A stretch of DNA of 64,000 nucleotides from a virus (Duplodnaviria > Caudoviricetes), in the IMG/VR virus record IMGVR_UViG_3300023235_001725. One strand, written 5' to 3'. The position numbers and the translations under genes were made by a program. The number at the start of each line of letters is the position of its first letter. Position 1 is the stretch's first letter. The notes below the pieces were generated by a model, which was not told where the DNA came from, did not search any database, and saw only the letters and a list, made by a program, of their open reading frames with translations. Below are positions 22,445 to 60,826 of this stretch, piece by piece.

Positions 22445-23095
22445 TTATGCTCCACAGCCAAAGCAATCAAAATCGCTTTCTTCTGGTCTAGCAGGTAGGT
22501 CATCGTAATCAGCTGTTGGTTCGTCTAATTGTTCTTCTTGCGCTTTTTTTGTCACAGTAAACTGAATAGCATCTGCAGCAGGCTTTGTCCGTAAGTAATA
22601 CATTCCAGTCTTAAGTCCTTTGTTCCATCCATAGAAGTGCATTGAGGTTAATTTTTGAAAATCTGGTTCGTCAATAAACACATTCATAGACTGACTTTGA
22701 CAAATAAATGCACCTCTATCTGCTGCCATGTCAAGAATATTTTTCTGCTTAATCTCCCAAACAGTTTTGTAAACATCCTGGATATCTTCTGGAATCTCAT
22801 CGATTCCTTGGACAGAGCCTCTGTTAGCGATGATTTTATTTCTAAGATTAAAGTCCCAGATTTTCAATTCGATTAATCTTTCAACCAAGTGAGGGTTCAC
22901 CAATACAAAGTTTCCAGAAAGAACTTTACGCTCGTAAATGTTTGAAGTAAAAGGCTCAAAACATTCGTTGTTTCCTAGGATTTGTGCTGTGTTATGACTT
23001 ACGCATCCGTTCCCCATTATGTAATGCTCCTCTCCTGGTACCGCTAAATCCCATGTAGGCTTTACTTTGCTTGGTGTTATTTTTTTTACTTTCAT
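22445..23095 (-). CDS. nrdA: class I ribonucleotide reductase alpha, C-terminal fragment with a 35-aa split-intein C-half (IntC)
   Basis: MKVKK...TWDLAV...[12 protein letters not shown] then extein [34 protein letters not shown], terminal CFGCGA. Confidence 0.93.
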
Positions 23096-24360
23096 TTTAT
23101 ATTGTTTTTAAGAAGAAAGTCTTCTACTTTCTCGTTGTTTACCTCTTTAGTTGAGCTGCTCCAAAGCTCTAAATATTTATACCCTTTCTCTAAAGCTAAG
23201 TCCTTCTTTCTCTGGTCTATGTTGTGTATTTCATCTGCAGACATTTTAACTCTATTAATACCTGAGCCTTTTAATCTCCAAGATTCCCAATTTTTCCACT
23301 CCTCCTTACTTAGCCTTTCTGGGTTTGGATGATATCTTTCGCCATGATACTCAATTATGATTTTTCGCTCAGGAATAGAAAAATCATAAAACCTCATGCA
23401 AGCGGAGTATTCGTCGTAAATACCTAACTCCTTACTCTCATCTATACCCACAAGTACTTCGAGTTCGCTTGAAAACTTATCAAACAGCGGTTGAAAAAAC
23501 ACAAGACTCTCTTTAGAAGCTCTTCCGAAATGTACTTGTTTCTTTAAAAAAATCTGCTCCACTTTGTTAATCGATTCTTTCTTTGACAAGCCTTTTGATA
23601 TCCAATAATCCACTGAAGAGGTGTTTAAATTTTCTGTATGAAACTTTTTTCTCATCTCTTCCGCATCCTCCTTGCTATATCCTTTATTAATCCAGTGTTT
23701 AGAAGTGAATACGCTTGTTTCTTTTTTTGCATCAACGTACTTATCCCACATATCTTTACCTTTATCTTCTCCGTGCTGTTGAATATACTTTTCTTTCGTG
23801 TGCTTTGAAGAATCTTGAAACTCTTTAAACAAGCTCAACCCTTTCTTTTCTCCATGTCTTTCTATAAAACCTTTCTCAGACGTTGCTTTGGAAGATTTGA
23901 AATTATCAATCTCAACCAGTGCTTCTTTCTCTGAAAAGCCCTTCTCAACCCAGTACTCCACTTTATAAGGAGTAACCCTGCTGCTGTAGGCATTTTCTTT
24001 TTTAATATTACCTAGCTCTAAACCCCATTTTAAATGGTAAAACTTATCTGAGTTAGAATCTGTCTTATTGGTTAATCTATACTTTACATATTTTTTAAAC
24101 CTTTCTCCATCAAAACTCTCAGACAACTCTTTTATGTTATCCCTTACTTTATGGCCAGGCATTTCTTTGCTTTGAATTACTTCAAAAGCAGAAATAAAGT
24201 GACTCACATCTAAGGACTCATGCATTTTAATTAATGCATACCCTGCCTTGATGTTGTCAAATATTAATTTGTCCATTTCAATGTTTGAGTTTCTTCTGAA
24301 AAAATCAGATACCCCCTTTAAAGTTCTTATCTCTGTATTATTAATTTTAAACCTATCCAT
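23092..24360 (-). mobile_element. free-standing Vsr/DUF559-like homing endonuclease between the nrdA halves
   Basis: C-terminal FYDFSIPERKIIIEYHGERYHPNP; repeated (Y)W..KG.S.EEA and HGE.KG DNA-binding-type repeats; ATGA overlap with nrdA-C. Confidence 0.85.
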
Positions 24361-24390
24361 TCTGTGCTATTTATTAATAAATAGCACAGA
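24361..24390 (-). promoter_or_regulatory. 30-bp perfect palindrome containing the putative late-promoter motif and abutting the endonuclease ATG
   Basis: TCTGTGCTATTTATT|AATAAATAGCACAGA then ATG on the minus strand. Confidence 0.8.
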
Positions 24391-24417
24391 ACTTTAGGCT
24401 GTCATGCCAGACGCAAC

Positions 24418-26634
24418 TTAGTTTTCAATTAGTTCTTCACATTTAATAGTTAGAATATCATCGTCTTCTTTTAACTCATTTACATAAACCCACTCATCTC
24501 CTGTAGTTCGACTCACAAGAAATCTATGATTTCCCGTAGCCTCCATTGTAGACCCATCTTCCATTTCTATATGGTAGACCTGCTTATGCCCATTGTAGTA
24601 CATCTTATCAGTTTCAACCTCTCCATTCATCGTGTCAACAATAACTGACTCTTTAAGAGTAATCCAATGTGGAGCATCAACCGACTCAATAGTTTTCCAA
24701 TCAATTCCACTTTGTTCTAAAATAGATTTGAAATTATTCACTTTTCCTTGGCTAAAGAACTCAGTGTCAATTACTTGACAACTTGCTGTAGGCATTGGAG
24801 CCAACAGCAGAGAGTTTCTAGCTCCAAACTCTTTCACTTTGTCCTTTAGACCATTCCAGTCCAAATTTAGATTCGGTGAGAGCTGAGACTCTTCCCAGTA
24901 ATCAAACTGGAAAATGCCTTTGCTTAGGTCTGAGCCTGGGAACGTTTCATATGCTCCATCTTTCATAGCTTCCTCCATAGAGGCCTCCATAGAAGCGAAG
25001 TAAATCATTTCGAAGATTTCCCTATTAAGTTGCTTTGCTACCTCCGAATCGAATGCCACGTGCATCTTAGCGAACACATCGGCTAAACCTTGAACACCAA
25101 TGCCAATTGGTCTGTGACGTAGGTTTGATTTCTTAGCCTCCACAACTGGGTAGAAATTTCGGTCGATAACCTTGTTAAGGTTTTTTGTGACCACCTTTGT
25201 AACCTCATATAGCTTATCAAAATCAAACTCGTACACTTTCTTGCTTGGGGTCTTAGCTGTGTTTGTTTGCTTCAAATACATTGGCAACGCAATAGATGCA
25301 AGATTACAAACAGCTACTTCATCTGGAGAAGTGTACTCCATAATTTCTGTACAGAGATTAGAGGACTTGATTGTTCCCAAGTGCTTTTGATTAGATTTAT
25401 GGTTAGCGGCATCCTTGTAAAGCATGTATGGAGTTCCTGTTTCAATTTGAGATTCAAGAATCTTGAACCAAATGTCTTGAGCAGGGATTGTCTCACGCCC
25501 TTTGCCTTGCCTCTCATATTTGGTGTACAACTTCTCAAAGTCATCTCCATAGCAGTCTGAAAGCCCAGGGCACTCGTTAGGGTCCATTAAAGTCCAGCTT
25601 GCGCCTTCATCAACTCGTTTCATAAACAAGTCTGGAATCCACATCGCGTAAAACAAATCTCTCGCACGCATCTCTTCTTTTCCTGTGTTCTTTTTCAAAT
25701 TAAGAAACTCGCGTATGTCTGCATGCCAAGGCTCTAAGTAGATTGCAAAAGAACCTTTTCGTTTTCCTCCACCCTGGTCAACATAACGAGCTGTGTCGTT
25801 AAAGTTTCTAAGCATTGGAACAATTCCATTAGAGGTTCCGTTGGTTCCTTTAATATAAGAGCCTTTGGCTCTTATGTTGTGAATGCTCAACCCTATCCCT
25901 CCAGCTGATTGTGAAATCAATGCACACTGCTTTAAAGTGTCATATATTCCATCAATAGAATCATCTTTCATCGTTAACAGGAAACAGGAAGACATTTGCG
26001 GTTTTGGAGTCCCTGCATTAAACAATGTAGGTGTTGCATGAGTAAAATACTTCATGGATAATAAATCATAAGTCTCTATAGCTTTGTCAATATCATCCAT
26101 GTGAATACCTACTGCAACGCGCATAAAAAGATGTTGAGGCCTTTCTGCTGGTGTTCCATGAGTCTTAAGAAGATACGAGCGTTTCATTGTCATGAATCCA
26201 AAATAGTCAAGCTGAAAATCTCGGTCTTGAATGATTGCCCCATTAAGTCTTGCACTGTTTTTTTTCACCACCGCATAGGCTTCCTCGCTAATAAGCGGTG
26301 CTGGTGCTTTTGTGATTGGGTCGACATACTCGTAGAGGTCTTTTATTGTCTGAGAAAACAATTTCTTTGTTTCCTTGTGAAGTGAAGTAATGGCTATTCT
26401 GGCTGCCAACTTTGAGTAATCTGGATGTGTTGTAACAAGAACGGCTGCCTTCTGAGCTGCTAATTCATCTAATTGCGTTGTTGATACACCGTCGAATATT
26501 CCTTGAATAACTTTTTGGGCTACTTCTGAATAATTAACTGCCTCCGATAAATCATAGCATTGCTTTTTAATTCTAGCAGCTATCTTATCAAACCTAACTT
26601 CTTCCTTAGAGCCGTTGCGTTTAGTAACTTGCAT
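24418..26634 (-). CDS. nrdA: class I ribonucleotide reductase alpha, N-terminal fragment ending in a 120-aa split-intein N-half (IntN, 24780-24418)
   Basis: ATP cone [41 protein letters not shown] then intein CQVIDT...[10 protein letters not shown]. Confidence 0.95.
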
Positions 26635-26653
26635 GTTTTGATTGTTATGTTGT

Positions 26654-26712
26654 AAAAAAAAAGAATAAGAGCCCCTATCCGATACTGCCCATATCGGTTA
26701 AGTATAGGGGCT
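26654..26712 (-). terminator. long bulged hairpin plus U-tract between nrdB and nrdA
   Basis: AGCCCCTAT/ATAGGGGCT outer stem, CCGATA/TATCGG inner stem, followed by TTCTTTTTTTTT on the minus strand. Confidence 0.65.
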
Positions 26713-26718
26713 TTTACT

Positions 26719-27708
26719 TTAAAAATCTGCGTCTTTGCTGAATGTCCTGGAGGATTTCCCACTGGCAACTCCAGGCTTTGCGTATTCACCGACTCGCCCT
26801 TCGAAGAAATTTGTTTTTGTGTCCACAGAAATCTTTTCCATGAAGTCAAACGGATTGATTGCATTATATTGTTTTGGACAGTTGAACTCGACAAGTAATC
26901 GGTCTGCCACAAACTCAATATAACTTTGCATCTGAAGAGCATTCATCCCTAAAAGACTCACTGGTAATGCATCTGTCACGAATTCTTTCTCTATATTGAC
27001 AGCATCTTTAATGATTTCAATGATTTCATCTTTAGAAATCTTGTTCACTAAGTGTTTGTTGAAAATGTGTACAGCAAAATCACAGTGCAATCCTTCATCT
27101 CTGGAAATTAGCTCGTTTGAAAAAGCTAACCCTGGCATTAATCCTCGGTCTTTTAACCAAAAAATAGAGCAAAAGCTTCCTGAAAAGAAAATGCCCTCGA
27201 CTGCTGCAAACGCAACTAATCTTTGAGCAAATGTCCCTTCATCAATCCATTTTAAAGCCCATTCAGCTTTCTTGCGAACACAGTCAAGAGTTTCTATCGC
27301 TCTAAAGAGCTTGTCTTTCTCGTTGCCGTCTTTAACGTAGGTATCGATTAATAGGGAATATGTTTCCGAGTGTACGTTCTCCATTGCTATTTGGAATCCG
27401 TAGAAGAACTTAGCCTCTGGATATTGAACCTCTGAAAGGAAGTTCTCTGCCAAATTCTCGTTTACAATTCCATCACTAGCTGCAAAAAAAGCAAGAACAT
27501 GCTTAATGAAATGACGCTCATTATCGTTTAATTTATCATTCCAATCTACAAGGTCGGCCTCTAAATCAATTTCTTCAGCCGTCCATATACACGCCTGTTG
27601 TTGTTTATAGTGTTGCCAAATATCATTGTGTTGAATCGGAAAAATCACAAAGCGGTTTGGATTTTCTTGTAAAATAGGCTCTATCCTATCAAGCGTCTTT
27701 TCACTCAT
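26719..27708 (-). CDS. nrdB: class Ia ribonucleotide reductase beta subunit
   Basis: [53 protein letters not shown]. Confidence 0.96.
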
Positions 27709-27876
27709 AGTAATTAAATTTTAGTCTTTAAGAATTATTAATACTCAATCCGAAAACCAGTTGAGTTTTTGGGGGGCCTTTCTAAATATGGCTTCTTTTT
27801 ACTAAGTCGGGCTTAGTTTTTTCACATCGTCATTTAGCCCTTATAAACGACAATAAAAGCAGCTAAATAAGTTTTT

Positions 27877-30012
27877 TTATTCCTCACCAAAGGAATCATA
27901 GTCTTCAAAATCTTCTGGGTCCCAGTCGTTCGTGTCCAAACCGAGCTCGCCTTCTAGTTGTTGACTTTCTTTTTCGTTTCTCGCGGTCGATTCTGAGTCA
28001 CTTCTCTCTTCTTCTTGCTGTTGAAAAGCTGACCAATCATTCTCAGAAACTTTCGTCTCAGGGTTTGACATAGACTCGTGGTGAACATACTCTTTATCGA
28101 ACGGAGTGTAAATTTCCTTTGCATCAACACTTGAGTCCTCATAACTGTGGTCTAGCTTTTCTTCATGATACCTAGCTGTTTCAATATTGTAAATCAAATT
28201 TGCCGTACCTGGGCGACCAATGAGTTTCTGCTTCTTAATTTTTTGAGACACAAACTGTACAAGCCCAGGATGTCGGAACGTGTCGAAGTGTGCTTCATTT
28301 CCTTGGGTGCGTCTAGCTCTCAGTCTTGAGAGGTAATATGGCTGATACGTTGCAAGCAAGTTATCTACTTTATTGCTCCACATTGCTCCACCAGCCAAGT
28401 TGTACTGGTCAGGAAGCTGATGGTTTCCTGCGTTCATCAAATCGTCGGTCTGATTGCGGTCAGTAACTTTCTCAATGTTTCCTTTAGGGTGACAAACGAT
28501 AATTTTGTATATGTTGTGGTCCAGAGCGAATCTTTTTTCCTTGCTCAGGTACACTCCGATATATTGGTCGTCTCTACCTCCTGCTGATGCCCAGTCATTA
28601 TCCAACTGGTTAAATGGGTCAGTCATGCACCCCTTGATGTCATGCTTGATAATTAGTTCTTCAAACCTGTCATTAATGTATCGTGGAGTCGGAGTGTCGT
28701 CCTTTGGGTACACAAAGTAAAAGTGCTCCATCATAAAATCAATTCCACGGTTGTACTCCGCAAGTGTCATTTGATTAGGGTGATAATGCTCTGTGGACTG
28801 CCCTACATACATATGTATTAAGTCTTTATAGAAGTCAATAGGAGGGTTTTGCTCTGGTGAGAAAATGCCCCATTTTGTTCCTTCTTTAAAGCTTTTAATA
28901 AGCATTAGTTGGAGCATTAGTGTGGTTTTACCGTGATTAGGTATTCCGTGCATAATGTTCACCTCTCCTAGCTTCCACCTCCAGTGTGGGTCAATAGAAT
29001 TAAAGTAAGTGGTCTCTCCTTTCGCATCTCCTTTGATGTAGGACTGAACCATCGCCTCCCTGATATCTTTCAAGTATATTACGTCACGCGCTGGCGATTC
29101 TGGGTCAAAGTCGCTCATCTCACCTTCTTGGGTGAAAAAAGAGTTTTCGTGCTGATTAGCATACGTAATATAAACCCTCTTTACAATCTCTCTAAAGTCT
29201 CTTGAGTCAACAGAAGATGCCCTGGGTTGGTAATCCTCGATTAGGTTTTCGATGACAAAATCCATCTTTAACCCAAATCTATTACAGGCTGAAGCTATGT
29301 AAACTAAAAATTTATGCTTGTTTCCGTCTCCATAATCATTTGTCCTGTCTGCCCACGCTTTTACTCGACGATAAACTTCACGTCGGTCTGAAAGTTTTGT
29401 TCCGTCTTTAGAGAACTCAGTGACCACTGGTTTCTCTTTAATCATGATATCAAACACCTTACTATCTGGATTCACAAATAGATTTGGGTCATAGCTCTCA
29501 TAGCATAACCTCGAAATATCTTTCAAATCATCCCAACCTTCAAAGTCGTCCATCTTAAAGTACATTCGAAGTGCTTCGAAATACTTACTATAGTCGCTTA
29601 TTACTGCTGGGATTTTTATCAGCACTTTGATACCATCTCCACTTGGAGAGCGGAAATAGGCGTATGTATACGAATCCTTCTCTAATGCCCCTGTCCACTT
29701 CTCGTAGTGTTCTATGTGGTCAAAATCAAGGCAAATTAATCCTGCAGATTCCTGGATTGCATCGTTCGCTCTCCATTTAAACTTTCCCGAAAAAGAGTAC
29801 GCTGGCAGATTCTTTTTAAGAGTGCTTCGCTGCTCTTTAAATTCCTCAGTGATTGGAAGCGCTCTTAGACCTTCAATCCACTCTTTTGAATGACCAGACT
29901 TTATTCTCTCCAATGCTTTCGTTACATCAATGTGATGTGGGTTTTTCGAGTCGAAAGTGTTTTTGTAAATTGTTATAGTTCTTGTCCCTACTTCATGATT
30001 CTTCTTGTCCAT
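27877..30012 (-). CDS. primase-helicase (VirE-N-like prim-pol N-domain plus DnaB/Twinkle-like SF4 helicase)
   Basis: LPAYSFSG, LICLDFDH, FRSPSGDGIK; Walker A GIPNHGKTT, TDPFNQ, VCHPK; start placed at MDKKN. Confidence 0.85.
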   Translation of the reverse strand: MDKKNHEVGTRTITIYKNTFDSKNPHHIDVTKALERIKSGHSKEWIEGLRALPITEEFKEQRSTLKKNLPAYSFSGKFKWRANDAIQESAGLICLDFDHIEHYEKWTGALEKDSYTYAYFRSPSGDGIKVLIKIPAVISDYSKYFEALRMYFKMDDFEGWDDLKDISRLCYESYDPNLFVNPDSKVFDIMIKEKPVVTEFSKDGTKLSDRREVYRRVKAWADRTNDYGDGNKHKFLVYIASACNRFGLKMDFVIENLIEDYQPRASSVDSRDFREIVKRVYITYANQHENSFFTQEGEMSDFDPESPARDVIYLKDIREAMVQSYIKGDAKGETTYFNSIDPHWRWKLGEVNIMHGIPNHGKTTLMLQLMLIKSFKEGTKWGIFSPEQNPPIDFYKDLIHMYVGQSTEHYHPNQMTLAEYNRGIDFMMEHFYFVYPKDDTPTPRYINDRFEELIIKHDIKGCMTDPFNQLDNDWASAGGRDDQYIGVYLSKEKRFALDHNIYKIIVCHPKGNIEKVTDRNQTDDLMNAGNHQLPDQYNLAGGAMWSNKVDNLLATYQPYYLSRLRARRTQGNEAHFDTFRHPGLVQFVSQKIKKQKLIGRPGTANLIYNIETARYHEEKLDHSYEDSSVDAKEIYTPFDKEYVHHESMSNPETKVSENDWSAFQQQEEERSDSESTARNEKESQQLEGELGLDTNDWDPEDFEDYDSFGEE

Positions 30013-30694
30013 CTGTATCTTTTCGTTGCGTTGCTGTTCCATAATAGTTCCCGATTGTCCATTTTCGAGAACTGTGCCCATTTTGAAGCCTGTGATTTGG
30101 GTTCTGATTTAGATACTCTATAAACTTATCACCGTAAAGTGTGCGCGGTCGAATGAAGTTTGTCATCTTATCGTTGTCTTGCCACTCTAGCGTCTTTATT
30201 TCGTTTACTATTTTAAAGTCTTTTACTGTTTTCCCGTCTTTCAGCCATCTCTCTACAAACTCAAATGTCTCCAAACTGTCTGTGGGGAAGCTTCTTTTTG
30301 CAAACAAATTTAAGTGCTCTACAATTTCTTTCACCACTGGATAAGTTGGTGATTTAAGAAAGTCTGCAGACTTTATTTTGCTATTCTTGTGCTCTTGGAG
30401 CATGCGCTTGCTGAAGTAGGCTCCTGTTGATGAATCTTGAAGCAATACGCCTTTGTCAAAGAGCTCTCCAAATGCGTTGTTGAATACGTTTTCATTTGTT
30501 ACCCTCAACATTTTCTGTATATCAAACCTTGACATCACTTTGTTTCGAAAAACCATGTAACCATATGGGTCTCCTCTATGCATATGACATAGAAGGTCAA
30601 TCCACATCCCTTTCGCCGTTAAAGAGCAATGCTTTAACTTAGCATCATCCAACCAGTCTTCTGGGTAAAATGTAAATCCTTGTCTGTCTATCAT
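29993..30694 (-). CDS. replication initiator-like protein (DUF1376/YdaU-like N-terminus plus conserved phage C-terminal domain)
   Basis: FYPEDWL...SLTAKGMWIDLLCHMH; EIVEHLN...KTLEW...FIRPRTLYGDKFIEYLNQ. Confidence 0.7.
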   Translation of the reverse strand: MIDRQGFTFYPEDWLDDAKLKHCSLTAKGMWIDLLCHMHRGDPYGYMVFRNKVMSRFDIQKMLRVTNENVFNNAFGELFDKGVLLQDSSTGAYFSKRMLQEHKNSKIKSADFLKSPTYPVVKEIVEHLNLFAKRSFPTDSLETFEFVERWLKDGKTVKDFKIVNEIKTLEWQDNDKMTNFIRPRTLYGDKFIEYLNQNPNHRLQNGHSSRKWTIGNYYGTATQRKDTDGQEES

Positions 30695-31716: not shown

Positions 31717-31772
31717 GCTGAAATTATAATTTATTCTACAAATATAAAAAATATCTGTTACCATCAAAGCAG

Positions 31773-31815: not shown

Positions 31816-31860
31816 CGCTATTCTAAGAACTTATGTTTTCAGAGGTATTAGCAAAGAGTT

Positions 31861-49730: not shown

Positions 49731-50153
49731 TTAAGTATTGGTTATACTTGAATCCAAATCTACTTGAGAAGATGTTTGTGACATCTGGTTGACCCTGTCT
49801 TTATAGTCTTTATTTTGCTGATTCATCTTCCCCATTGTGGCAAGAACTCTGCCAAGTTCTTCTTCCTGGTCATCAGTTGACTCAATTTCGTCTTCAATGC
49901 CATCCATTTTTGTTTTATCAGTTTTTTTCATCATTGTGTTGATTGACTTATCTGGATGCACTTGAATACCCTGCTGCTTCTTTAAGCTGTTGAGACTTTT
50001 TTCTTGGTCTTTTTTTCGCTGCTGAGCCACAGCAATTAAATCCTCAATTGATTCTGGAGAATATTCTAGCTCCTCGCCATTATCTGCCCCAATATTAGAA
50101 TACTCCAATAAGTATTTGCGAATTTCGCTTCGTATGTATGACTCGTTGTTCAT
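49731..50153 (-). CDS. hypothetical protein, putative late gene
   Basis: YIRSEIRKYLLEY N-terminal helix. Confidence 0.7.
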   Translation of the reverse strand: MNNESYIRSEIRKYLLEYSNIGADNGEELEYSPESIEDLIAVAQQRKKDQEKSLNSLKKQQGIQVHPDKSINTMMKKTDKTKMDGIEDEIESTDDQEEELGRVLATMGKMNQQNKDYKDRVNQMSQTSSQVDLDSSITNT

Positions 50154-50611
50154 TATTGTTCTTTATTGTATTGTTCAAAATGCTCACACACAGAACTGTA
50201 ATTTTCATTGATGTCTTTTTCCCATACTCTTTCCAGAACGTAACCCAACCCCCGTGCAAGGCTGTCTTTATAGAGGTCGTTCTTTTTGTTCTTAATTTGC
50301 ATATGATTTAGCTCCCCCTCGGTATAGACTTTTGGATTTCCATGGTAGTAATCTCCATCAATCTCCACTAAAACATTATAGTCTGGTAGGTAAAAATCAT
50401 AAATCACATCGTTAAGAATTCTTTGAGGTTCGCAATTCACACCCATCTTCTTCATCATCTTTTCAAATTTCTTTTCTGGGGCGGTCATCTTTTTGGTCAT
50501 TGCCGCAGCTTGCCCTTCCATATATTTTTTCTTGTTTATCTCATGCTGGTCTTTATACAAGTCTTTATACATCTGCTTCTTTAACCACGCGGCTTTCTTC
50601 TGCATGCTCAT
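50153..50611 (-). CDS. Vsr/DUF559-like endonuclease, minimal stand-alone form
   Basis: YDFYLPDYNVLVEIDGDYYHGNP...LERVWE. Confidence 0.8.
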   Translation of the reverse strand: MSMQKKAAWLKKQMYKDLYKDQHEINKKKYMEGQAAAMTKKMTAPEKKFEKMMKKMGVNCEPQRILNDVIYDFYLPDYNVLVEIDGDYYHGNPKVYTEGELNHMQIKNKKNDLYKDSLARGLGYVLERVWEKDINENYSSVCEHFEQYNKEQ

Positions 50612-51924: not shown

Positions 51925-52345
51925 CCAAGAAAAAAATGGATGGAACGAATGGTCAAAGCACATCATTCGTGAATTAGAACGTTTAAATGAAAGCTCTGAA
52001 AAACTTCGTGAAGGCATTCAAGATAGTAATTTAGAGATAACAAAACTTAAAGGACTAGAGAAAGAAATTGTTGAGCTAAAATCAGGAGTAACGTCAATTA
52101 AAAATGAGATAGAAAAATCCTCTTACAAATTTCAAGCCCGTGTAGATGAAAGAATAAAGACTCTGATTAAAGAAATTAACGAAAATGTAGTTGAAGTTAA
52201 AAATTCAACAGACAGCCTCATTGAAAGAATTTCTAAACTTGAAGACTACAAAAGCTACATAGTAGGGATTGGAGTTGCTGTCGGTATAATAATAACCTTT
52301 ATTATATCAGTATTAGCGCTTTTTGACTGGGGTTCTATCACTTAA
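51914..52345 (+). CDS. coiled-coil protein with a C-terminal TM anchor
   Basis: WNEWSKHIIRELERL, heptads, IVGIGVAVGIIITFIISVLALF; overlaps the PAS gene stop. Confidence 0.75.
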   Translation: MSDNQEKNGWNEWSKHIIRELERLNESSEKLREGIQDSNLEITKLKGLEKEIVELKSGVTSIKNEIEKSSYKFQARVDERIKTLIKEINENVVEVKNSTDSLIERISKLEDYKSYIVGIGVAVGIIITFIISVLALFDWGSIT

Positions 52346-52395
52346 TATTTGTCGTCTTTGACTAAAACCACAGTGTGTTGAATAGCGTATGATTC

Positions 52396-53118
52396 TTAGC
52401 AACCAGGGCCGCTCTTTGCTTTGAGTGGAAATGAGAGGAATGCTAAAAAGTTTGGCTCAACGGTAATGAATAAGTTTTTCCACCAGTATCCGTATCCGAA
52501 TTTCTCTTTCATTATTTCTCCCACAACTTTCCTAGCTTTTTTAGGTACTATTACAGTCTTTACAGAAGTGCCCTCAATTATGTGTGCAGCTCTTTTTCGG
52601 CCTTTTATTCTTTCAATGTAATTCATCTTCTCCCACCATTGTATTAGCGTTTGAGATTGGGTTCTGCTAATTTCTAATTCATTGGAAATAAGCGTTACAG
52701 ACATGCTCACAAATTCTCCCTTAATTTCAGTACGATTTTCTTTATTCACTTCATTGAAGCGGTTGCTAATCTCGTTCTTAAGGCTAGAGTGGACGTGATG
52801 TATCTGTCTTGCTTTGTACTCAACTAATTTTAGAAGCAGCAGCTTCTTCATTTCAGACACAGTGGTGATATTTCTACCTTGTGTATCTATCGTGCATCGA
52901 TGTTTAACTATGAGCCCGTTAATTGGCTTTTCTACTTTGTTATGAGAGACCATTTGGAGGTTGCCGTGGTGAAATTTAGCAAGACCCCATTTAATCATCG
53001 TTGGAACACATCTCCTAAGGATTGAAACGGATATACCAAGCTTTTCCGAAGCAGACCTCCAGGAAAAATTATAAATTACAGGGGATTTTTTGAATCGCCC
53101 TCGAATTAGGTAATACAA
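52396..53118 (-). CDS. basic, putative HTH DNA-binding protein (start uncertain)
   Basis: WRSASEKLGISVSILRRCV and SVTLISNELEISRTQSQTLI are HTH-like. Confidence 0.55.
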   Translation of the reverse strand: MYYLIRGRFKKSPVIYNFSWRSASEKLGISVSILRRCVPTMIKWGLAKFHHGNLQMVSHNKVEKPINGLIVKHRCTIDTQGRNITTVSEMKKLLLLKLVEYKARQIHHVHSSLKNEISNRFNEVNKENRTEIKGEFVSMSVTLISNELEISRTQSQTLIQWWEKMNYIERIKGRKRAAHIIEGTSVKTVIVPKKARKVVGEIMKEKFGYGYWWKNLFITVEPNFLAFLSFPLKAKSGPGC

Positions 53119-53197
53119 AGCCAGAGCGTCTAAAGCATTCCTGTAATGGAAATGACCTATAACGCCTTCATTTGTCTTGATATAATATCTCGTTTTC

Positions 53198-53560
53198 CTA
53201 ATTGTCGTAAAATTGAGAGTTGTCCTCTTGTTGTTTTATATGTGGGCACACGACGATGGTCTGTTGTAAAACATTTAACACCCTCATCATAGCTCCTAAA
53301 TCGTACATCTTATATTCTCGACAAAGCTTATGAAAATCATTTTCACAAACGTATCTAAATGTTGGTTGTCCGTCGATTTCAAGTCGAAGAGGAAAATAAT
53401 CCCATCCGTCTTGCATCATGCTGTTTTTGTACAATAACGTGCCATTGGCTCGCATTCGCCGAGTTGTCCCTATTGATGCGATTATACCGCCTGATTCTTT
53501 TGATTCCTCCAAGTTATTCAAGAGGTGTTTGTCAAACCAATAATGTTTCTTCATATGCAT
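53198..53560 (-). CDS. hypothetical protein
   Basis: ORF track. Confidence 0.6.
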   Translation of the reverse strand: MHMKKHYWFDKHLLNNLEESKESGGIIASIGTTRRMRANGTLLYKNSMMQDGWDYFPLRLEIDGQPTFRYVCENDFHKLCREYKMYDLGAMMRVLNVLQQTIVVCPHIKQQEDNSQFYDN

Positions 53561-54623
53561 GCATTACTGTTGTTAATTTAACTCTTCCGTTAAAGTTTAA
53601 AAATCCTTTTTCGTTTCGTTTGAATTTGCCTACGTATACAGCTTGTTTCTGTAGCTGAGGAAGAAGTTTTTCACTAATTGGAGAAAATATATTGAACTTT
53701 ACAGTGTCAATACCATCGCTTCCATGTATAGAGATAAAGTCTTTTCCTTTTTTAGTTTTCTTAAATAAGATATCATTGATAATAAACCAGTAAAAACCTT
53801 CTTCAGCATAATGTGGTAGTGGAAGAATAGCTTCTTTCGACTTGTCACTCATTTCCCCCATTCGGGTGTGAATAATTGAAACTCGATTAATTTCTTCCAT
53901 ATCAAAACCACATACTCCCATAAATTCATCTTGCTTTTCAATATCGGAAGTTGCTGCGTATTTTAAATGGTCTATTCTATGAGTGTACTCGATATCATCC
54001 ATGTCGAACATTGCAAACTGCGAAGCGTCTTTAGGTTTTTTCTTCCTGTTTTTATCTCTTAGAAACATTAAATATTCTCTAGAAGTGCTCCAGTCATCAA
54101 ACATTCCCGCTTGTAAACAAGAACGAAAAGAAGTCTTGTTGAATTTAGTGAAGGGTATATCAAAAAAAGCAGCCATAGATATTTCGCTAAATTTCTTCCC
54201 TTTTATTGCTAAATTATCTTTCAACTCTTTATAAGCAATATCTCCCATCCCAGTCATGCTAGAGAAACCCATTGTGATTTCGTTGGGGCCAGTCATCGAC
54301 CATCTCCATATTGAGAATCTAGTCGGAGGTTTTATAGTGATTCCTCTAGATATTGCAGCGGTGATTGTCTGAGTCAGCCATTGTTTTTCTTTCTCCTTTC
54401 CAGCGTTTGAAGACTTTTGCTCGTTCAATAGCGCTGTATAAAAGTATACTGGGTAGTAATGCTTTAAGTATAAAGTTTGCATAGCGATGTATGCGTATGA
54501 AACCGAGTGACTATTTGAAACACAGATATCATTTGCATAGAAGTTGTGATGTTCATTATCGATTTCTAAATCGTAAGTATCTACCACTCCTATTTCTTCA
54601 ACTTCTATAATAGATTCAAACAT
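53532..54623 (-). CDS. dnaE: DNA polymerase III alpha, C-terminal fragment preceded by a 37-aa IntC-2
   Basis: MFESII...TYDLEID..HNFYANDICVSN then SHSVSYAYIAMQTLYLKHYYP; HhH-like GFSSMTGMG; OB-like C-terminus. Confidence 0.92.
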   Translation of the reverse strand: MFESIIEVEEIGVVDTYDLEIDNEHHNFYANDICVSNSHSVSYAYIAMQTLYLKHYYPVYFYTALLNEQKSSNAGKEKEKQWLTQTITAAISRGITIKPPTRFSIWRWSMTGPNEITMGFSSMTGMGDIAYKELKDNLAIKGKKFSEISMAAFFDIPFTKFNKTSFRSCLQAGMFDDWSTSREYLMFLRDKNRKKKPKDASQFAMFDMDDIEYTHRIDHLKYAATSDIEKQDEFMGVCGFDMEEINRVSIIHTRMGEMSDKSKEAILPLPHYAEEGFYWFIINDILFKKTKKGKDFISIHGSDGIDTVKFNIFSPISEKLLPQLQKQAVYVGKFKRNEKGFLNFNGRVKLTTVMHAYEETLLV

Positions 54624-55594
54624 TTTATTTTGTTTTTTATAATTGACTCGTTATTAATTATATCATTCTCCCACAATTCTATAAGCTGAAAACTCCCGTC
54701 ACTTTCAACTGCATGCCTTTTTTTTATATCTCTTTTCTTGTTCTTTATTTGAACATCATGAGTACACCCGCTATGTCTTGTATTTTGATTACTATGAAAA
54801 AAATCTCCCTGTACTTCTATTAAAATGCTTCCTATTCTAAAGTCAAAAGAATAACCATAACAAGAAAACTCTTCTTCCCATGTACCTTTGAATTCTTTAG
54901 CGTGATTTGATTCAGAATAAGTATCTTTTCCAAATCGTTCACTTAGCATTCTCTTTACCTCAAGATGAGGTTTTGATTGACCATGAGAATAGACACCACT
55001 TTTGTATCTAGCTATCGTTATATCTCTAAGGCGCTGTTTAGTTTCTTCTGAATGTTTAAATCCAGTATGACCATGTATTTCTCTTTTTTTAGCACTCTCT
55101 GACATGCGCTCAAGTGTTTCATTGCTGAATTCAACGCCTTTTCTGCGCTCAGAAAGCTTTTTCATGACTTCATTATTATCTTTAGTTTTTCCTTTGTTCC
55201 AAGCTTTTATACCGTACATAGGGTTTCCTTTTCCTTTGCGTTCTTCCTTCATTCTTTCGACGTGAAGTTTATATTCTTTATTATTTTCCGCCACGTACTT
55301 AGCAGTTTCTGTTGTAGTACAATTATTCGAAAATTTACCGAAAACAATAGAGCCTTGAAGTTTGTAACTAGGCTTATCTCCTGTAATCGGACACAAAGGA
55401 GTTGTAATGGATTCTGGAAGCAAATCTACCAAACTCTTCCCATAAACACTTTTGTGATAATAATTTGATATCTCAGAATTGTAGTAGTTGTTGTTTTGTC
55501 TAATTAAAACTAATGACAACTTTGCCCTCCATTTTTTCATATCAATATCTTCGCCATTCACTATATCCTTTTTGAAATCGATTTTTACTTTCAT
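54605..55594 (-). mobile_element. NUMOD3-repeat, Vsr-like homing endonuclease inside dnaE split site 2
   Basis: KGNPMYG..AWNKG, HSEETKQRLR repeats; FDFRIGSILIEVQGDFFHSN...IELWEND. Confidence 0.85.
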
Positions 55595-55627
55595 AATATA
55601 TAGTATATAGACTGAGATTTGTTAAAA

Positions 55628-57250
55628 CTAGTTTATTTTTACAGAAAGCTTTTGTTCAATAATATCTTTCAGAGGTAACATACCTTGTTCAGTCATTATT
55701 TTATGGTCCAAAGTGCATTCTAAAATTTTCCCACTACTTGTCTTAATTCGATAAACTTTCTTTTTACCGTTGTTATGACGAGCTTTCACTGGAACCCATT
55801 CATTTTTTTTCGTGTCTGGATTATAACCTAAAATCATATCTCCTGGCCTAGTTTTTAAAAGAGATATTTTTCCCTTTTCCTTTTCTGTGACTTCACAGTT
55901 TTCAGATAAACATTTGTTAAACGAATACCCTAGATAATCAGAAAGGTATAAAAGGATTTTATCAACCTCTTCTTTCGGAACACCATTTTCCTCTGCTCCA
56001 GATACAAACTTACTCCAATACTCTTCGTAAGCTTTATAGTTCTTACTTTCCTTTTCGTCCTGAGTGAGTTCTTCTCCTTGGTTTGTTTTTTTTATAAGCT
56101 TCGCAGCTTTATCAAGTGCACGACGCAAGTTATCACCCTCTCCTAAATCCATTCCCGCTATCTCTTTTGCGATAAATTGAATTTGCTCCTGAAACACCAG
56201 TACACCGTTAGTTTTTTCTAATATTGGCTTTATCAAATCAGATGGAAATTCAATCTGTCCTGGGAACCTCTTGTTATCAACGTATTGACGGTGGGCTCCA
56301 ATTCCCATTGGGCCTGGTCGATAAAGAGCATTACAAGCAGCCATTTCTTCAAAGTTCTCAACGTTGAGTCCTCGAATCAAAGCGTTCATGCCTGGCGATT
56401 CAAATTGGAATATACCGTGGTTCTGACCAAGCATTAACTCCTTGTAAAGGTTTTGGTCATCAAACTGCTCATCAATATTCATTATTGTATCGAACAAATC
56501 AATCTTTTCACCATCCTTAACCATCTTGATACAATCCATGATGATATTAATTGTTGACACTTTCAAACGGTCAAGCTTCAATATCCCAAGATAACTCAAG
56601 TCTTTTCCAGAGCGGTCCCCCTCTTGATATGCTGATACAATTGATTTATTAGAGACAATCATATTTGTTGGGAGGTAGTCCCAAGAAGGCCCAGGAGTAA
56701 TAACAACTCCAGCGGCGTGTTTACCAAAACCTCTCACTTGACCCTGAAGAGCCAGTGTTTGTTCTATAATTACTTTGTTGGATGAATCAGTAAGCCATCT
56801 TTGTACGAGTGGACTGCAATCATCTGACTGAGCATGGTTTTCTAACCACCAAGCCAAGTTGTATTCGACTTTGTCGAACTTCGGCATCTCTTTAGTGATT
56901 TGAGCTACATCCGATTCAGTTCCTGTTGCTTCTGGCCCACGGTGTGCACGAACAACGTCCTTCAAACATCCTCTTTCATTCCATTTAGAAAAAGTACCAA
57001 CACTCATTACTCGTTCTCTACCATATTTTTTGTAAAGGAAGTCATCAGTTTCATGGTCTGTTCCTGTTTGAAAATCAATATCTAAATCGGGAGGGCTATT
57101 GTGTATGATTATCAGTGAGTTACACTCTTTATTTAAAGCTTTACTAGAAGTAGATTTGACCATAAAATATGGGTCCCCTTCAAAAGATAAGTCATAAACT
57201 GGCCCGTCGTACTGTATCTTGCGTATTGACTTTATGCTGACTGTCTTCAT
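55628..57250 (-). CDS. dnaE: DNA polymerase III alpha, middle catalytic fragment flanked by a 51-aa IntC-1 and a 94-aa IntN-2
   Basis: MKTVSIK...VYDLSF...IIHN then SPPDLDIDF, GKHAAGVVI, KLDRL, GIFQFES, LYRPGPM, VFQEQ, YSFNK then CLSEN...CTLDHKI; start ATG at 57250 overlaps the endonuclease TGA. Confidence 0.93.
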   Translation of the reverse strand: MKTVSIKSIRKIQYDGPVYDLSFEGDPYFMVKSTSSKALNKECNSLIIIHNSPPDLDIDFQTGTDHETDDFLYKKYGRERVMSVGTFSKWNERGCLKDVVRAHRGPEATGTESDVAQITKEMPKFDKVEYNLAWWLENHAQSDDCSPLVQRWLTDSSNKVIIEQTLALQGQVRGFGKHAAGVVITPGPSWDYLPTNMIVSNKSIVSAYQEGDRSGKDLSYLGILKLDRLKVSTINIIMDCIKMVKDGEKIDLFDTIMNIDEQFDDQNLYKELMLGQNHGIFQFESPGMNALIRGLNVENFEEMAACNALYRPGPMGIGAHRQYVDNKRFPGQIEFPSDLIKPILEKTNGVLVFQEQIQFIAKEIAGMDLGEGDNLRRALDKAAKLIKKTNQGEELTQDEKESKNYKAYEEYWSKFVSGAEENGVPKEEVDKILLYLSDYLGYSFNKCLSENCEVTEKEKGKISLLKTRPGDMILGYNPDTKKNEWVPVKARHNNGKKKVYRIKTSSGKILECTLDHKIMTEQGMLPLKDIIEQKLSVKIN

Positions 57251-58311
57251 TGAATTGCTTTTTTTAAGGTAGCTTTTACTTCTTCTCTGTTTTTGTCCCA
57301 ATCATGTTCCCATATGATAAAAACACGATATCCTGTTATCTTTTTAATTTGCTTAATTCTCTGTTCGTCAATCTCCCAAAGTTGTCCTGCTGTTTTCTTT
57401 TTATGAGGATGAAAGTAATCTGCTTTAAACTTTAATGGATTACAGTGCCAATAGTCTCCATAAAATTCTACTATAATACGGTTTTTAGGATTATAAAAAT
57501 CTACATGATATGCTTTTTTGTTTTCAACATCAGCAACTATAATTTGTTGATTTTCACTTTCATCATAAAAACTCGAATCAATAAGCTTTAAATCAGAAAC
57601 AAGGTATTCAACGAGTTTTTGCTCTTTTTTAGAACTCCCACTTCCAAAGTTGACTTGGATTTCATGTTGCACATTATCACTGTGGAATATATTCTCAACT
57701 CCATATTTTTCCATCATTGTTTCAGTCACAGCACTATAATGACTTCCTCTGTTTAAAAACCAAGGCACCCCGTATTTGTCTTGAATGGATTTAGATATCT
57801 TATCTCTAACTTCTTGTATTTGTACTGGAGAAGTTAACCCTGTTGTTCCATAAGTTTCATTTAATCCTTTTTGATATTTTTCTCTATAACCTTTTGTTCG
57901 ATAGTATATTTTTTTGTAATCACCGTGCTTCATATAAAACCCATGCTCCCAAAAAAACTTTCCCCCTCTAGAAGGATGGAGTTTGTGACGTATTTTTTTG
58001 TTATAAATTTTTGTAAAATATTCAACTTGACTCCCAGTTAAAGGGTAGTTTTTAGTATCCACCTCCAATCTCATCTGCGTCTTACCACGGTCAATGATGT
58101 AATGAAAACCAGTGATGACACCAGTTTTTTTATTATCTCTAATTAACATAGCTCCAATAATGCAAGAAGGAGAAACAGCTAAACCACACTTATATGGCCA
58201 CTCTTTGATTTCTTTTTTTGTTGGAACAGCATGAATAAGAGAAGTCTCACGAAGTCTTTGGTCGAGTTCCGCTTTTGTAATATCTTCTATGCTTAATAAT
58301 AAATCTATCAT
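57247..58311 (-). mobile_element. Vsr-like homing endonuclease inside dnaE split site 1
   Basis: KYGV repeats; VDFYNPKNRIIVEFYGDYWHCNP...IIWEHDW; ATGA overlaps at both ends. Confidence 0.85.
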
Positions 58312-58640
58312 TTTAGAAAGTCTTTATCTATAGATAGGCTCGGATTTTTAAACTCCAGTTCATACAGCCCCCAAAGCGCTTCTGCAATCTCATTTCCTCT
58401 TTCATCAATATTGTCAAACCACCCCTTCTCATTAGAGGGTATTTTGTGGGTATCTCTCGCGTTAATTCTTCCAATATCATGAGAGCCTTTATTGGAAGAC
58501 ATTGACATTATAATGTGGTCTAAGAATATTCTCACCTGCTTATCCCATTCTGTTGGTTTTTGCCAAGCTGGAATTATAAGTTTAGAACCTTCTTGACACA
58601 TACCTTTAAAATTAATATCTCTACTTCCTTGTACTATCAT
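58308..58640 (-). CDS. hypothetical protein inserted within the split-intein locus
   Basis: 110-aa ORF with ATGA overlaps to both dnaE-N and the endonuclease. Confidence 0.65.
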   Translation of the reverse strand: MIVQGSRDINFKGMCQEGSKLIIPAWQKPTEWDKQVRIFLDHIIMSMSSNKGSHDIGRINARDTHKIPSNEKGWFDNIDERGNEIAEALWGLYELEFKNPSLSIDKDFLK

Positions 58641-60826
58641 AATTTTCGTATTAACATTTTATCTGTCTCTAATAACTCATCCACGCGAATATCAACACGC
58701 TCTCCTTTGCGCATCACAGGTACAATGTGATTCCCCGTCAATTTTACAATGATGGAATCTTCAGTTTCAATCTCAAACACCTCATCAGCTGGTGTGATAT
58801 CTCGCTTATGCACTTGAACCAAAACGCCGTTGCCTGATTCTGTTTCAACTGGGTCCCCAGGAACAATATCTCCGATAGGTTTCAGTGAGCCATCTTTCAT
58901 CAACACCAGCCCATCTTCAGTAACGCAATTACGTGCTGGATTCAAAAAACGCTCAAAATACAGCCCGAATTGAATAGGGTCAATCTTAGTGATGTCAAGA
59001 CACCATGCTAATAAAGAACCAGCTGCAGAGCCTCTTCCACTTCCAATTTCAAAACCTCTTTTCTTATAATCTCGAATAATTTCCCAGTTTACAAGGAAGT
59101 AGTCAAGCATCTTCTTGTCCTTAATTACTTTTAACTCGTAATGGAGTCTATTTGTGTACTCATCTACAACCTCTTGTGTTTGTTGTAATTTTCCTTTGGT
59201 AAACTTACGTCCGAGCTTTTGCTTGAGTTTCGCAAAAGCCATCTTTGTGATAATGGTTTCCGTGTCCTCTGCTCCTGCCCAATCTATAATGTCTTTCGTT
59301 GGTTCGTAACGAGGGTATTTTTCAACCCCTACTTCAAATTCAAAATTGCAACGCTCAGCCAGCTTCAAAGTGTTATCCATGAATATCTGTAGAATGTTGT
59401 GCGGGTAATTGTATCCAAATTTTGAATTCAGAACATAGTAGTCTTTTCTCGACAAATAATACAGATTTCTTCGTTCCTCTAAACGACACTTATCCATCCC
59501 TATTTGTTGTTTTATAGCGGAAACAGTGTCTTGCAAAGACGCTTCTTTTTGCTTAACATAATGAACATCATTATCTAAAATCACCATTGCCTTCGTGGCG
59601 GATGCCATTTTTAAAACAAAGTTGTTAAATCGCTTTTGCTCACCAATCTCTGAAAACTTAATTTCTGCGATATAATCTGGGCCAAATGCTTTTTGTAATC
59701 GTTCCCAATATTTAGAAGCTGCCGTCTTTTGTCCTTTAAAAAACAAACTTGCGAGATATCCTTGGTAGTTTCCAGTGGTAACAATCAAACCTTCTTTGTT
59801 CTCAATTAACCAATCAGTGTGAATACGAGAATACATCCCATCAAAACCTTCTGAATGAGATTTAAATATCAGCTTATTAAGGTTTACAAAACCCACTTGG
59901 TTTTTAACAATGATTTTTATTGGGTATCCACCTTTTTCTGACTCTTCGGAGCCAACAGTATCGTTGAGATAGATTTCAATTCCAAATATTGGCTTGATTC
60001 CGTATTTTTCAGCTTTCTGTGACAACTCTAGACTGCCTGACATGGTTTCGACATCAATAACAGCGAGAGATGTGTGCCCTAGTTCTTTAGCACGCTTAAG
60101 ATAATTATCAATACTACCTGAGCCACGAAGCAAGCTATAGTGAGTGTGACAAGAGAAATGAACTAACGGCTTAGCTTCCTCTTCTGGGGATACCGATACG
60201 TGGGCAACACTCTCAGAAGAAAACCCATTAGAGGAATCGGAAGGAAGTTCTTTAAATCCGAAAATGCCAAGCCGTTGAAGTTCAAAAAAACATTTAGCGG
60301 TTGCTTGCACATCGAAAAATGCGTTGTGAGCACCTAAAAAGTCTTTCCCAAAAAGCTTATTATGGAGCTCAATAAGTTTTGGAAATTTATAACCCCGACG
60401 ACCCCTTAATTTACAAAAGTCAATTGTAAGCTTCATCGTGTCAACGGGAAATATTGAAGCTAGATTGTGACTCATCGATGCTCGATGAAATTCACACCCC
60501 ATAATTCCAAGGTCAAAATTGATATTATGTGCTATGAGGTAATAGTTACGCTCTAGAGCAATTTTAAACTGATTTAAGGCATCAAGCATAGAAATTCCTT
60601 CTGCGTGCGCCTTTTCGTTTGATATGCCGTGTATTTGAACGACTTCGTGAGGAATGTTGTATCCTTCAGGTTTAATTATAAGGTCGTGCCTGGATATTTC
60701 GCTGCCGTCTTGTGCATATTCAACCCAGGCTAACTGTACTAGTCGAGGCCAGTTATCTGCATCTGTCCAAGGTGCGTTAAACCGTTTTGGCCTGCCAGTA
60801 GTCTCTGTATCGAAGACTATATACAT
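58637..60826 (-). CDS. dnaE: DNA polymerase III alpha, N-terminal fragment (DEDDh exonuclease, PHP, start of palm) ending in a 96-aa IntN-1
   Basis: FDTETTG, AHNINFD, AHNAFFD; HFSCHTHYSLL; GSGRGSAAGS; FERFLNPARN then CVTEDG...LTGNHIV. Confidence 0.94.
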   Translation of the reverse strand: MYIVFDTETTGRPKRFNAPWTDADNWPRLVQLAWVEYAQDGSEISRHDLIIKPEGYNIPHEVVQIHGISNEKAHAEGISMLDALNQFKIALERNYYLIAHNINFDLGIMGCEFHRASMSHNLASIFPVDTMKLTIDFCKLRGRRGYKFPKLIELHNKLFGKDFLGAHNAFFDVQATAKCFFELQRLGIFGFKELPSDSSNGFSSESVAHVSVSPEEEAKPLVHFSCHTHYSLLRGSGSIDNYLKRAKELGHTSLAVIDVETMSGSLELSQKAEKYGIKPIFGIEIYLNDTVGSEESEKGGYPIKIIVKNQVGFVNLNKLIFKSHSEGFDGMYSRIHTDWLIENKEGLIVTTGNYQGYLASLFFKGQKTAASKYWERLQKAFGPDYIAEIKFSEIGEQKRFNNFVLKMASATKAMVILDNDVHYVKQKEASLQDTVSAIKQQIGMDKCRLEERRNLYYLSRKDYYVLNSKFGYNYPHNILQIFMDNTLKLAERCNFEFEVGVEKYPRYEPTKDIIDWAGAEDTETIITKMAFAKLKQKLGRKFTKGKLQQTQEVVDEYTNRLHYELKVIKDKKMLDYFLVNWEIIRDYKKRGFEIGSGRGSAAGSLLAWCLDITKIDPIQFGLYFERFLNPARNCVTEDGLVLMKDGSLKPIGDIVPGDPVETESGNGVLVQVHKRDITPADEVFEIETEDSIIVKLTGNHIVPVMRKGERVDIRVDELLETDKMLIRKL

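Follow-up and report, generated by a model that had tools for sequence, protein, structure and literature searches.

A candidate natural set of orthogonal split inteins in the broken NrdA and DnaE genes of a Caudoviricetes virus

The 64,000-nucleotide (nt) virus stretch IMGVR_UViG_3300023235_001725 (Duplodnaviria; Caudoviricetes), hereafter the window, raises the question of how several split inteins encoded by one virus each keep to their own partner. Its NrdA gene is interrupted once and its DnaE-type polymerase gene twice, and at each interruption the N-terminal half (IntN) and C-terminal half (IntC) of an intein flank a free-standing endonuclease open reading frame (ORF; 422, 354 and 329 amino acids (aa), respectively). 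We consider it highly probable that these are three independent 'fractured genes', whose diverged split inteins most likely do not cross-react, in a large myovirus-like salt-lake phage. The three distinct co-resident pairs proposed in a first-pass annotation are borne out between 22991, where the NrdA IntC starts, and 58927, where the first DnaE IntN ends, and the +1 residues it had assigned (Thr for NrdA, Ser for both DnaE-1 and DnaE-2) can be read in the translated ORFs.

Broken NrdA and DnaE genes in the window

NrdA is broken at PMPTAS/T (a slash marks the splice junction throughout) and occupies two ORFs (24418-26634 and 22445-23095). DnaE is broken at FLNPARN/S (site 1) and YSFNK/S (site 2) and occupies three: piece a (58637-60826), piece b, whose true start is the ATG at 57250, and piece c (53532-54623). 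All of the pieces, the intein halves and the intervening ORFs lie on the minus strand of the window (Table 1). As judged from uninterrupted homologues, removal of the inteins restores the host motif exactly at all three junctions. Many NrdA fragments run seamlessly across the junction (PMPTASTxQILGNNE). For DnaE, a protein search with the middle piece (targets of 297-945 aa, E <= 1e-5) returned 2171 matches, 120 of which were listed and sorted into classes by regular expressions; site 1 is seamless in nine proteins uninterrupted there (FLNPxRNSPPDIDxD), and site 2 is 'empty' (FNKSHS) in 41 of the 120 listed.

The catalytic residues of the halves are intact and conserved. Position 1 is the nucleophile Cys in all three IntN and is invariant in relatives, and each IntN has a block B TxxH (TGNH in NrdA and DnaE-1, TLDH in DnaE-2). 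All three IntC carry the block F Asp (WDL in NrdA, YDL in both DnaE pairs) and end in Asn before the +1 residue (HN/T, HN/S and SN/S for NrdA, DnaE-1 and DnaE-2), and the block F His is present in NrdA (EEHY) and DnaE-2 (HHNF). The relatives that conserve these residues share 40-60% identity. Invariant positions are C619, N702 and H703 among 19 sequences of the NrdA IntN; W15, D16, S33, H34, N35 and T36 among 33 of the NrdA IntC; C1, T64 and H67 among 12 of IntN1; and H50, N51, S52, C447, T513 and H516 among 23 of the DnaE middle piece. The block B Thr of the NrdA IntN (T700) varies, being Cys in 12 and Thr in six of the 18 printed relatives. Each of the three ORFs that carry an IntN has a Pfam match to Intein_splicing or Hint (E 3.5e-6, 1.9e-4 and 3.5e-7). 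Because the catalytic residues are both intact and conserved, the halves would be expected to associate and to trans-splice.

Each pair belongs to a lineage of its own relatives. Sixteen of the 18 NrdA intein relatives are IntN-only (111-123 aa, charge -6 to -16) and the remaining two are contiguous mini-inteins of 152 and 155 aa, while the same type of IntC opens at least 28 NrdA C-fragments among 120 listed. The nearest solved relative of IntN2 is the Npu DnaE intein (E 1.4e-7); the NrdA IntN gives weak matches to DnaB and DnaE inteins, and IntN1 gives weak matches to a TFIIB intein and to hedgehog.

The broken-gene arrangement is not an assembly artefact, because the NrdA pieces occur in identical form on 33 and 27 contigs (up to 446,956 bases in length) and the DnaE stretch recurs in 24 coded runs labelled salt lake metagenome, none of them listed as an RNA run; contigs from four of these 24 runs differ from the DnaE stretch at 0-2 positions per listed piece. 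The window also encodes a T4-type portal, baseplate proteins, a sigma-70-type factor, SSB, a UvrD helicase, a RecA-like protein, NrdB and a 5'-3' exonuclease beside NrdA and the DnaE-type polymerase, and it looks like part of a large myovirus-like salt-lake phage. Against deposited phages, megablast with the DnaE region found no match, and tblastn recovered distant DnaE only (<60% identity).

Table 1. Positions of the NrdA and DnaE pieces, intein halves and intervening features in the window
Feature	Position	Strand	Description
NrdA N-extein	24781..26634	-	618 aa, ends PMPTAS; ATP-cone, all-alpha and barrel domains (Pfam PF03477, PF00317, PF02867)
NrdA IntN	24421..24780	-	120 aa, starts CQVID, Cys1, block B TGNH, net charge -15
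RNA hairpin at NrdA endonuclease start	24359..24392	-	15 bp, -25.5 kcal/mol, z -5.5, equalled by 0 of 200 shuffles
NrdA-locus endonuclease gene	23092..24360	-	422 aa, free-standing, putative Vsr-like C-terminal nuclease; phrog_22677 E 1.2e-20
NrdA IntC	22991..23095	-	35 aa, ends VSHN, +1 Thr, net charge +2
NrdA C-extein	22445..22990	-	181 aa, starts TAQILGNNE; Pfam PF02867 positions 392-523
DnaE piece a extein	58928..60826	-	633 aa, ends FLNPARN; exonuclease, PHP and start of Pol III alpha core (Pfam PF00929, PF02811, PF07733)
DnaE IntN1	58640..58927	-	96 aa, Cys1, TGNH, net charge -8
Small ORF between IntN1 and endonuclease gene	58308..58640	-	110 aa, ATGA overlaps on both sides
DnaE-1-locus endonuclease gene	57247..58311	-	354 aa, free-standing; predicted C-terminal Vsr / I-Bth0305I fold
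DnaE IntC1	57098..57250	-	51 aa, ATG in ATGA overlap with endonuclease stop, ends IIIHN, +1 Ser, net charge +2
DnaE middle extein	55913..57097	-	395 aa, SPPDLDIDF to YLGYSFNK; Pfam PF07733, PF17657
DnaE IntN2	55631..55912	-	94 aa, Cys1, TLDH, net charge +7
DnaE-2-locus endonuclease gene	54605..55594	-	329 aa, free-standing; nuclease motif common to all three endonucleases
DnaE IntC2	54513..54623	-	37 aa, ends CVSN, penultimate Ser, +1 Ser, net charge -10
DnaE C-extein	53532..54512	-	326 aa, starts SHSVSYAY; continuous with middle part in uninterrupted homologues

Empty, contiguous and split alleles of the DnaE sites

The listed DnaE proteins occupy their insertion sites in many combinations. 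The layout of the window, an RN/S IntC followed by IntN2, occurs in 22 of the 120, while an RN/S IntC is combined with an empty site 2 in 21, including the closest relative among them (P0002, 86% identity), and with a contiguous 129-138-aa mini-intein at site 2 in ten; five have IntN2 and an uninterrupted site 1. A third insertion site, GRG/SAAG, carries a canonical 35-36-aa IntC and is found together with IntN2 (eight proteins), a contiguous site-2 intein (four) or an empty site 2 (14). The other 36 were incompletely classed.

Related viral loci were taken as the best 80 of 489 stretches from an alignment-based scan, and their occupancy was read from ORF-by-ORF BLAST; a single-protein scan of viral contigs, unlike the alignment-based one, gave no match. 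No intein is present at the DnaE sites in 56 of the 80 loci (including one with an in-frame stop and one partial). Twelve are split at site 1 only, each with a homologue of the 354-aa endonuclease; two are split at both sites 1 and 2 (L001 and L008); two combine a site-1 split with a contiguous site-2 intein; one, plus one truncated locus, is split at site 2 only; one has only a contiguous site-2 intein; and five are split at GRG/SAAG, one of which (L002) is also split at site 2. Locus L001 (3227-10111, plus strand) is split at all three sites, so that its DnaE is in four pieces, one of them a 164-aa chain with a 34-aa extein between its IntC and its IntN, and its endonuclease genes have decayed to remnants of 48-75 aa. 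The window halves tile the contiguous alleles end to end, with 0-12 residues of the contiguous allele left unmatched between them.

This series matches the prediction of the gene-breaking model of Dassa et al. (2009; NAR 37:2560; PMC2677866), in which a mobile mini-intein is invaded by an endonuclease gene and the resulting irreversible split outlives the endonuclease. Each window locus would have begun as a mini-intein seated in a conserved motif of an enzyme essential to replication or nucleotide metabolism, and a Vsr-like homing endonuclease gene would later have divided that mini-intein by inserting where an endonuclease domain usually lies. As the pieces share a strand and are packed by ATGA overlaps, they would probably be carried on one transcript. 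After translation each IntN would find its own IntC, fold with it into a Hint domain and trans-splice, with a 799-aa NrdA made from two chains and a 1354-aa DnaE made from three as the products.

Other inteins and interruptions were seen alongside this series. One otherwise uninterrupted dnaE (L077) has a single in-frame stop at 7304-7306 (plus strand), between middle-part residues 100 and 102, for which a sequencing error, decay to a pseudogene and recoding of the stop are possible explanations. The related records G001-G004 are intein-rich, with up to nine Intein_splicing matches in a 95-kb fragment, several of them outside dnaE and in frames of 1186-1973 aa. In the window itself a fourth intein (62450-63691, minus strand; LPGA/C ... 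TQN/S) interrupts the T4-type portal gene. It is contiguous, 414 aa long and contains an HNH-like insert, and it shares 21-28% identity with the three split inteins in its N part and 23-26% in its C part.

Specificity among the three pairs

Pairwise identity among the three window lineages is 21-30% for IntN and 23-39% for IntC. The first-pass annotation had noted that NrdA and DnaE-1 share a polarity, which is the case (IntN -15 and IntC +2 for NrdA, -8 and +2 for DnaE-1, reversed to +7 and -10 in DnaE-2), and had reasoned that something else must prevent NrdA-DnaE chimeras. Given the low identity, and given that 15 of 16 unrelated split inteins lacked cross-reaction in the matrix of Pinto (2020), no special device appears to be required. 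Close DnaE alleles do cross-react (Beyer et al. 2019), and in published matrices cross-reaction is found mainly among close alleles or at atypical split sites (Pinto 2020; Beyer et al. 2019). Since unrelated split inteins rarely cross-react, the deep divergence of the three lineages appears sufficient to account for their non-cross-reaction, and from the 21-39% identity combined with the essential products, the pairs are likely to be mutually orthogonal. Selection against cross-reaction can fairly be inferred as well, because mispaired halves would produce chimeras of NrdA and DnaE, a DnaE with no middle or a middle piece closed on itself by cyclisation. The set might instead be partly orthogonal, with some cross-splicing tolerated or held low by expression levels and kinetics; the NrdA IntN and the DnaE IntC1 are electrostatically compatible, but the low identity between lineages and the restriction of published cross-reaction to the cases named above make it unlikely.

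Two structural features had been put forward as the discriminator between NrdA and DnaE. The insertion of ~14 aa in IntC1 exists as described, as extra residues between blocks F and G that make IntC1 longer than both the NrdA IntC and IntC2. This loop and the extra N-terminal length of the NrdA IntN are the most visible structural differences between two pairs that share a polarity and whose IntC both have basic first 14 residues (+5 in NrdA, +4 in IntC1), which is what would make a negative design against chimeras attractive. However, extra residues between blocks F and G are present in all 59 RN/S-site IntC found (45-61 aa), where the loop varies in length and in sequence, and three records (G006, G009 and G010) have a 51-aa IntC1 with the loop together with an NrdA uninterrupted at PMPTAS/TAQ (two of the three share an identical IntC1). 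Likewise, the long N part extends throughout the NrdA intein lineage, in which the contiguous mini-intein alleles are of 152-155 aa. Because the traits are lineage-wide and the loop occurs beside an uninterrupted NrdA, we read both, from these comparisons, as inherited lineage traits and not as devices for co-residence, and a role of either or both in negative design is quite improbable. A prediction of the complex with four chains (NrdA IntN, IntN1, NrdA IntC and IntC1, each with its alignment) scored 0.69, against 0.90 for a control with chain 1 replaced; this was taken as no answer and was not used either way.

The F-G loop also holds a motif, (I/L/V)DxD(F/Y/L/S), often as NIDIDF, in 19 of the 59 RN/S-site IntC (P0007, P0010, P0014, P0035 and P0042-P0047 among them), compared to a mean of 0.28 and a maximum of 3 in shuffled loops. 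It echoes the PDIDIDF of the polymerase downstream of the splice junction and could be left over from a duplication of that junction. The motif is absent from the IntC1 of the window, and the 19 carriers are related and are not independent events.

Charge is the other property by which partners could be told apart. In the window, both halves on the DnaE middle piece are basic (+2 and +7) and both on the outer pieces are acidic (-8 and -10), and relatives keep this middle/outer pattern: all 12 IntN1 sequences are acidic, charge averages +3.0 in the RN/S IntC (n = 59) and +5.2 in the split IntN2 (n = 40), and the last 36 aa of the contiguous site-2 inteins range from -5 to -13 (n = 14). An IntC-extein-IntN layout, such as that of the middle piece, is a laboratory format for peptide cyclisation. 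An assembly order coded in charge, in which the opposite DnaE polarities were selected against cyclisation of the middle piece and skipping by the outer pieces, is compatible with three diverged fractured genes and is possible, if doubtful. Among double-split middle pieces the charge of IntN2 is at least 0 in 22 of 22 of the RN/S type and positive in seven of eight of the RG/S type, and that of IntC1 is positive in 19 of 22, although the sequences are related and these counts do not represent independent events. Further, engineered charge changes can yield orthogonality in a split NpuDnaB mini-intein (Beyer et al. 2019). The larger proposal, that a three-chain DnaE (four in L001) is built by natural orthogonal split inteins with polarities arranged so that only the correct neighbours attract, is speculative and somewhat unlikely; should it be true, nature would have supplied a counterpart to the charge-swapped inteins engineered for ordered ligation in one pot, along with ready-made, co-evolved pairs with Ser or Thr at +1.

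Several observations weigh against reading the window as three orthogonal, active pairs, or against charge as the cause of their specificity. The N-positive, C-negative polarity of site 2 predates the split, since contiguous alleles already carry it, and any two polarities have an even chance of agreeing or differing. On the 164-aa chain of L001 a basic IntC from one intein is combined with an acidic IntN from another, so halves of inteins with like polarity are tolerated on a single chain, and a strand-charge swap alone left Npu DnaE non-orthogonal (Beyer et al. 2019). Because the polarity is older than the split, L001 tolerates like polarity and charge swaps were insufficient in Npu, the role of charge within DnaE is considered a possible cause only. 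Regarding activity, the intein matches of the halves fall short of the curated Pfam cut-offs, which is to be expected of half domains, and IntC1 is without the block F His (DPYF), at a position that is variable in relatives. The latter, together with an IntC2 that has Ser in place of the penultimate His (CVSN), as the first-pass annotation had it, would suit a phage in which one or more pairs are splicing-dead and the pieces assemble non-covalently via short tails, as do NrdA-a and NrdA-b of phage Aeh1, the precedent for a functional fragmented NrdA without splicing (Crona 2010). We find this highly improbable: the window retains Cys1, TxxH, the terminal Asn and the +1 Ser or Thr, none of which varies in the 12-, 23- and 33-sequence alignments, C619, N702 and H703 are likewise invariant in that of the NrdA IntN, and CVSN also ends all five of the contiguous alleles printed. 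Specificity among three spliced pairs would most likely lie in the deep divergence of their lineages, with an added electrostatic bias within DnaE, where exon skipping and self-cyclisation would pair like charges.

Endonuclease genes and relation to known systems

The three endonucleases have a C-terminal motif in common, D...E..G(D/E)..H.N...D...W. PDB sequence searches with the three whole proteins gave nothing meaningful, and Pfam gave a sub-threshold DUF559 match in one of the three C-terminal parts. A PDB profile search with the C-termini matched Vsr-superfamily entries only, and weakly (E 0.36-1.6), namely 3hrl, I-Bth0305I (3r3p, E 0.43) and three Vsr entries. An AlphaFold2 model of the 354-aa protein (pLDDT 80.6) has Vsr (1cw0) as its best Foldseek match (probability 1.00, E 1.1e-3), with 1vsr also found, and matches the I-Bth0305I catalytic domain (3r3p) with probability 1.00 and a TM-target of 0.67. 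The 354-aa endonuclease is thus a predicted member of the Vsr-like family, and the motif and weak profile matches suggest the same for the 422- and 329-aa proteins. Homologues of the 354-aa endonuclease occupy the same place in 13 of 16 related site-1-split loci, with a remnant in L001, and homologues of the 329-aa endonuclease lie between the site-2 halves in L005 and L008. The 110-aa ORF between IntN1 and the endonuclease gene has no Pfam or PHROG match and no counterpart in the 80 related loci.

ATGA stop/start overlaps occur at four junctions, including the one that joins the NrdA-locus endonuclease gene to the IntC ORF, and the fifth overlap is that of the last 19 nt of the DnaE-2 endonuclease gene with the IntC2 ORF. 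At the NrdA locus the 3' arm of an RNA hairpin spans the first two bases of the endonuclease AUG; no comparable fold is seen at the starts of the two DnaE endonucleases (z +1.1 and -0.45). The T4-type late promoter TATAAATA has 11 matches, compared to 4.1 expected, with no match at the endonuclease starts. The NrdA IntN ORF ends in a TAA (24418-24420), and a second in-frame TAA is found eight codons further on (the two lie within 24394-24420, minus strand); read-through of the first would append a short tail to the IntN.

Additional observations concern the mobility and source of the endonucleases. In run X20 one joint would leave out 1011 bases, and with them most of the DnaE-1 endonuclease gene, and another would leave out 3222; with a single contig behind each joint and sides of 30 and 21 letters at 85% likeness, an endonuclease-free variant of DnaE-1 is too weakly supported to be accepted. 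About 3 kb downstream of dnaE the window has a 152-aa DUF559/Vsr-like ORF with the same motif (50153-50611, minus strand), and most of the 80 loci, intein-free ones included, have a homologue of it (36-55% identity) 1-5 kb downstream of that gene. This ORF could be a resident relative of the nuclease domain found in the mobile endonucleases, or its source.

The fractured gene as a kind is already known, having first been described in 2009, when a three-piece DnaE was also glimpsed (Dassa et al. 2009; PMC2677866). That study reported 26-27 fractured loci from ocean metagenomes, including seven of NrdA and three of DnaE, one of the latter with the C part of an additional intein; its IntN were of 88-105 aa, its IntC of 33-54 aa, and both charge polarities were represented. 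Like the loci of the window, those were mainly phage elements, with NrdA and DnaE among the hosts and with a split intein and a free-standing Vsr-like endonuclease gene between the halves on one strand; the endonuclease criterion there was membership in the GIY-YIG or Vsr-like family, and a hairpin at the endonuclease start, as at the window NrdA locus, was described for 15 of 16 such genes. All three window loci fit this layout, with the 110-aa ORF as an addition at DnaE-1. The NrdA inteins differ: NrdA-1 to NrdA-7 of Dassa et al. adjoin the thiyl-radical Cys and have Cys at +1, whereas that of the window lies ~190 residues further, at PMPTAS/T, with Thr at +1 and a 120-aa IntN that exceeds the stated range, and it belongs to a different lineage. 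Compared to the earlier loci, the window has a whole three-piece DnaE, both of its endonuclease genes and the NrdA locus on one contig. A complete natural three-piece DnaE, or co-resident natural split inteins considered as a set, was not found in the literature beyond Dassa et al. (2009), in a search of incomplete coverage with few subscription journals and with one supplementary file of that study outside it. What is new here is the complete three-piece DnaE, an NrdA site other than those described previously and the family picture from metagenomes.

The cyanobacterial Npu and Ssp DnaE proteins, like the DnaE pairs of the window, have a split intein in the Pol III alpha subunit, although their halves are at distant loci and those of the window are adjacent. 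The Npu/Ssp intein also has a penultimate residue other than His. The cyanobacterial site is three residues upstream of the window FNK/SHS (+1 Ser) and has Cys at +1. Polarity is opposite, with a charge of -10 in the window IntC2 and a more positive Npu IntC (Beyer et al. 2019). The gp41-1 intein, from a metagenomic, phage-like fractured gene, has the basic IntN and acidic IntC of the window DnaE-2 but belongs to another host protein and lineage (6qaz matches weakly, with E 0.01 for IntC2 and E 0.31 for IntN2).

Phage Aeh1 (nrdA-a/mobE/nrdA-b) resembles the window in an NrdA split by a free-standing endonuclease gene, in overlapping ORFs and in a hairpin that controls the endonuclease. Its NrdA differs in having no intein, an HNH endonuclease and non-covalent assembly via tails, and the break is between Cys439 and Cys462 (E. 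coli numbering) and not at PMPTAS/T. With I-Bth0305I and other Vsr-like (EDxHD) endonucleases the window shares the conserved motif and the predicted C-terminal fold of its 354-aa protein, matching 3r3p and Vsr, while sequence similarity is weak and the N-terminal parts differ (DUF7487, NUMOD3-like).

The window provides complete paired sequences for three uncharacterised split inteins co-resident in one phage, two of them in one protein, all with Ser or Thr at +1 and one at an NrdA site that the fractured NrdA loci of 2009 do not include. At the DnaE sites, the states from empty to contiguous to split with an endonuclease and split with a decayed one form a clean record, left by nature, of how an intein is proposed to give rise to a permanently broken gene, and the four-piece DnaE of L001 and the layout of the middle piece offer a natural test bed for the mutual non-recognition of split inteins. 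The gain for protein engineering is incremental, because a 15-member orthogonal library already exists (Pinto 2020). In the engineered libraries several split inteins likewise stand side by side, there for multi-fragment ligation and with charge networks as a design handle (Pinto 2020; Beyer et al. 2019); the window set, known from its sequence, differs in being natural and co-resident, with Ser or Thr at every +1 position.

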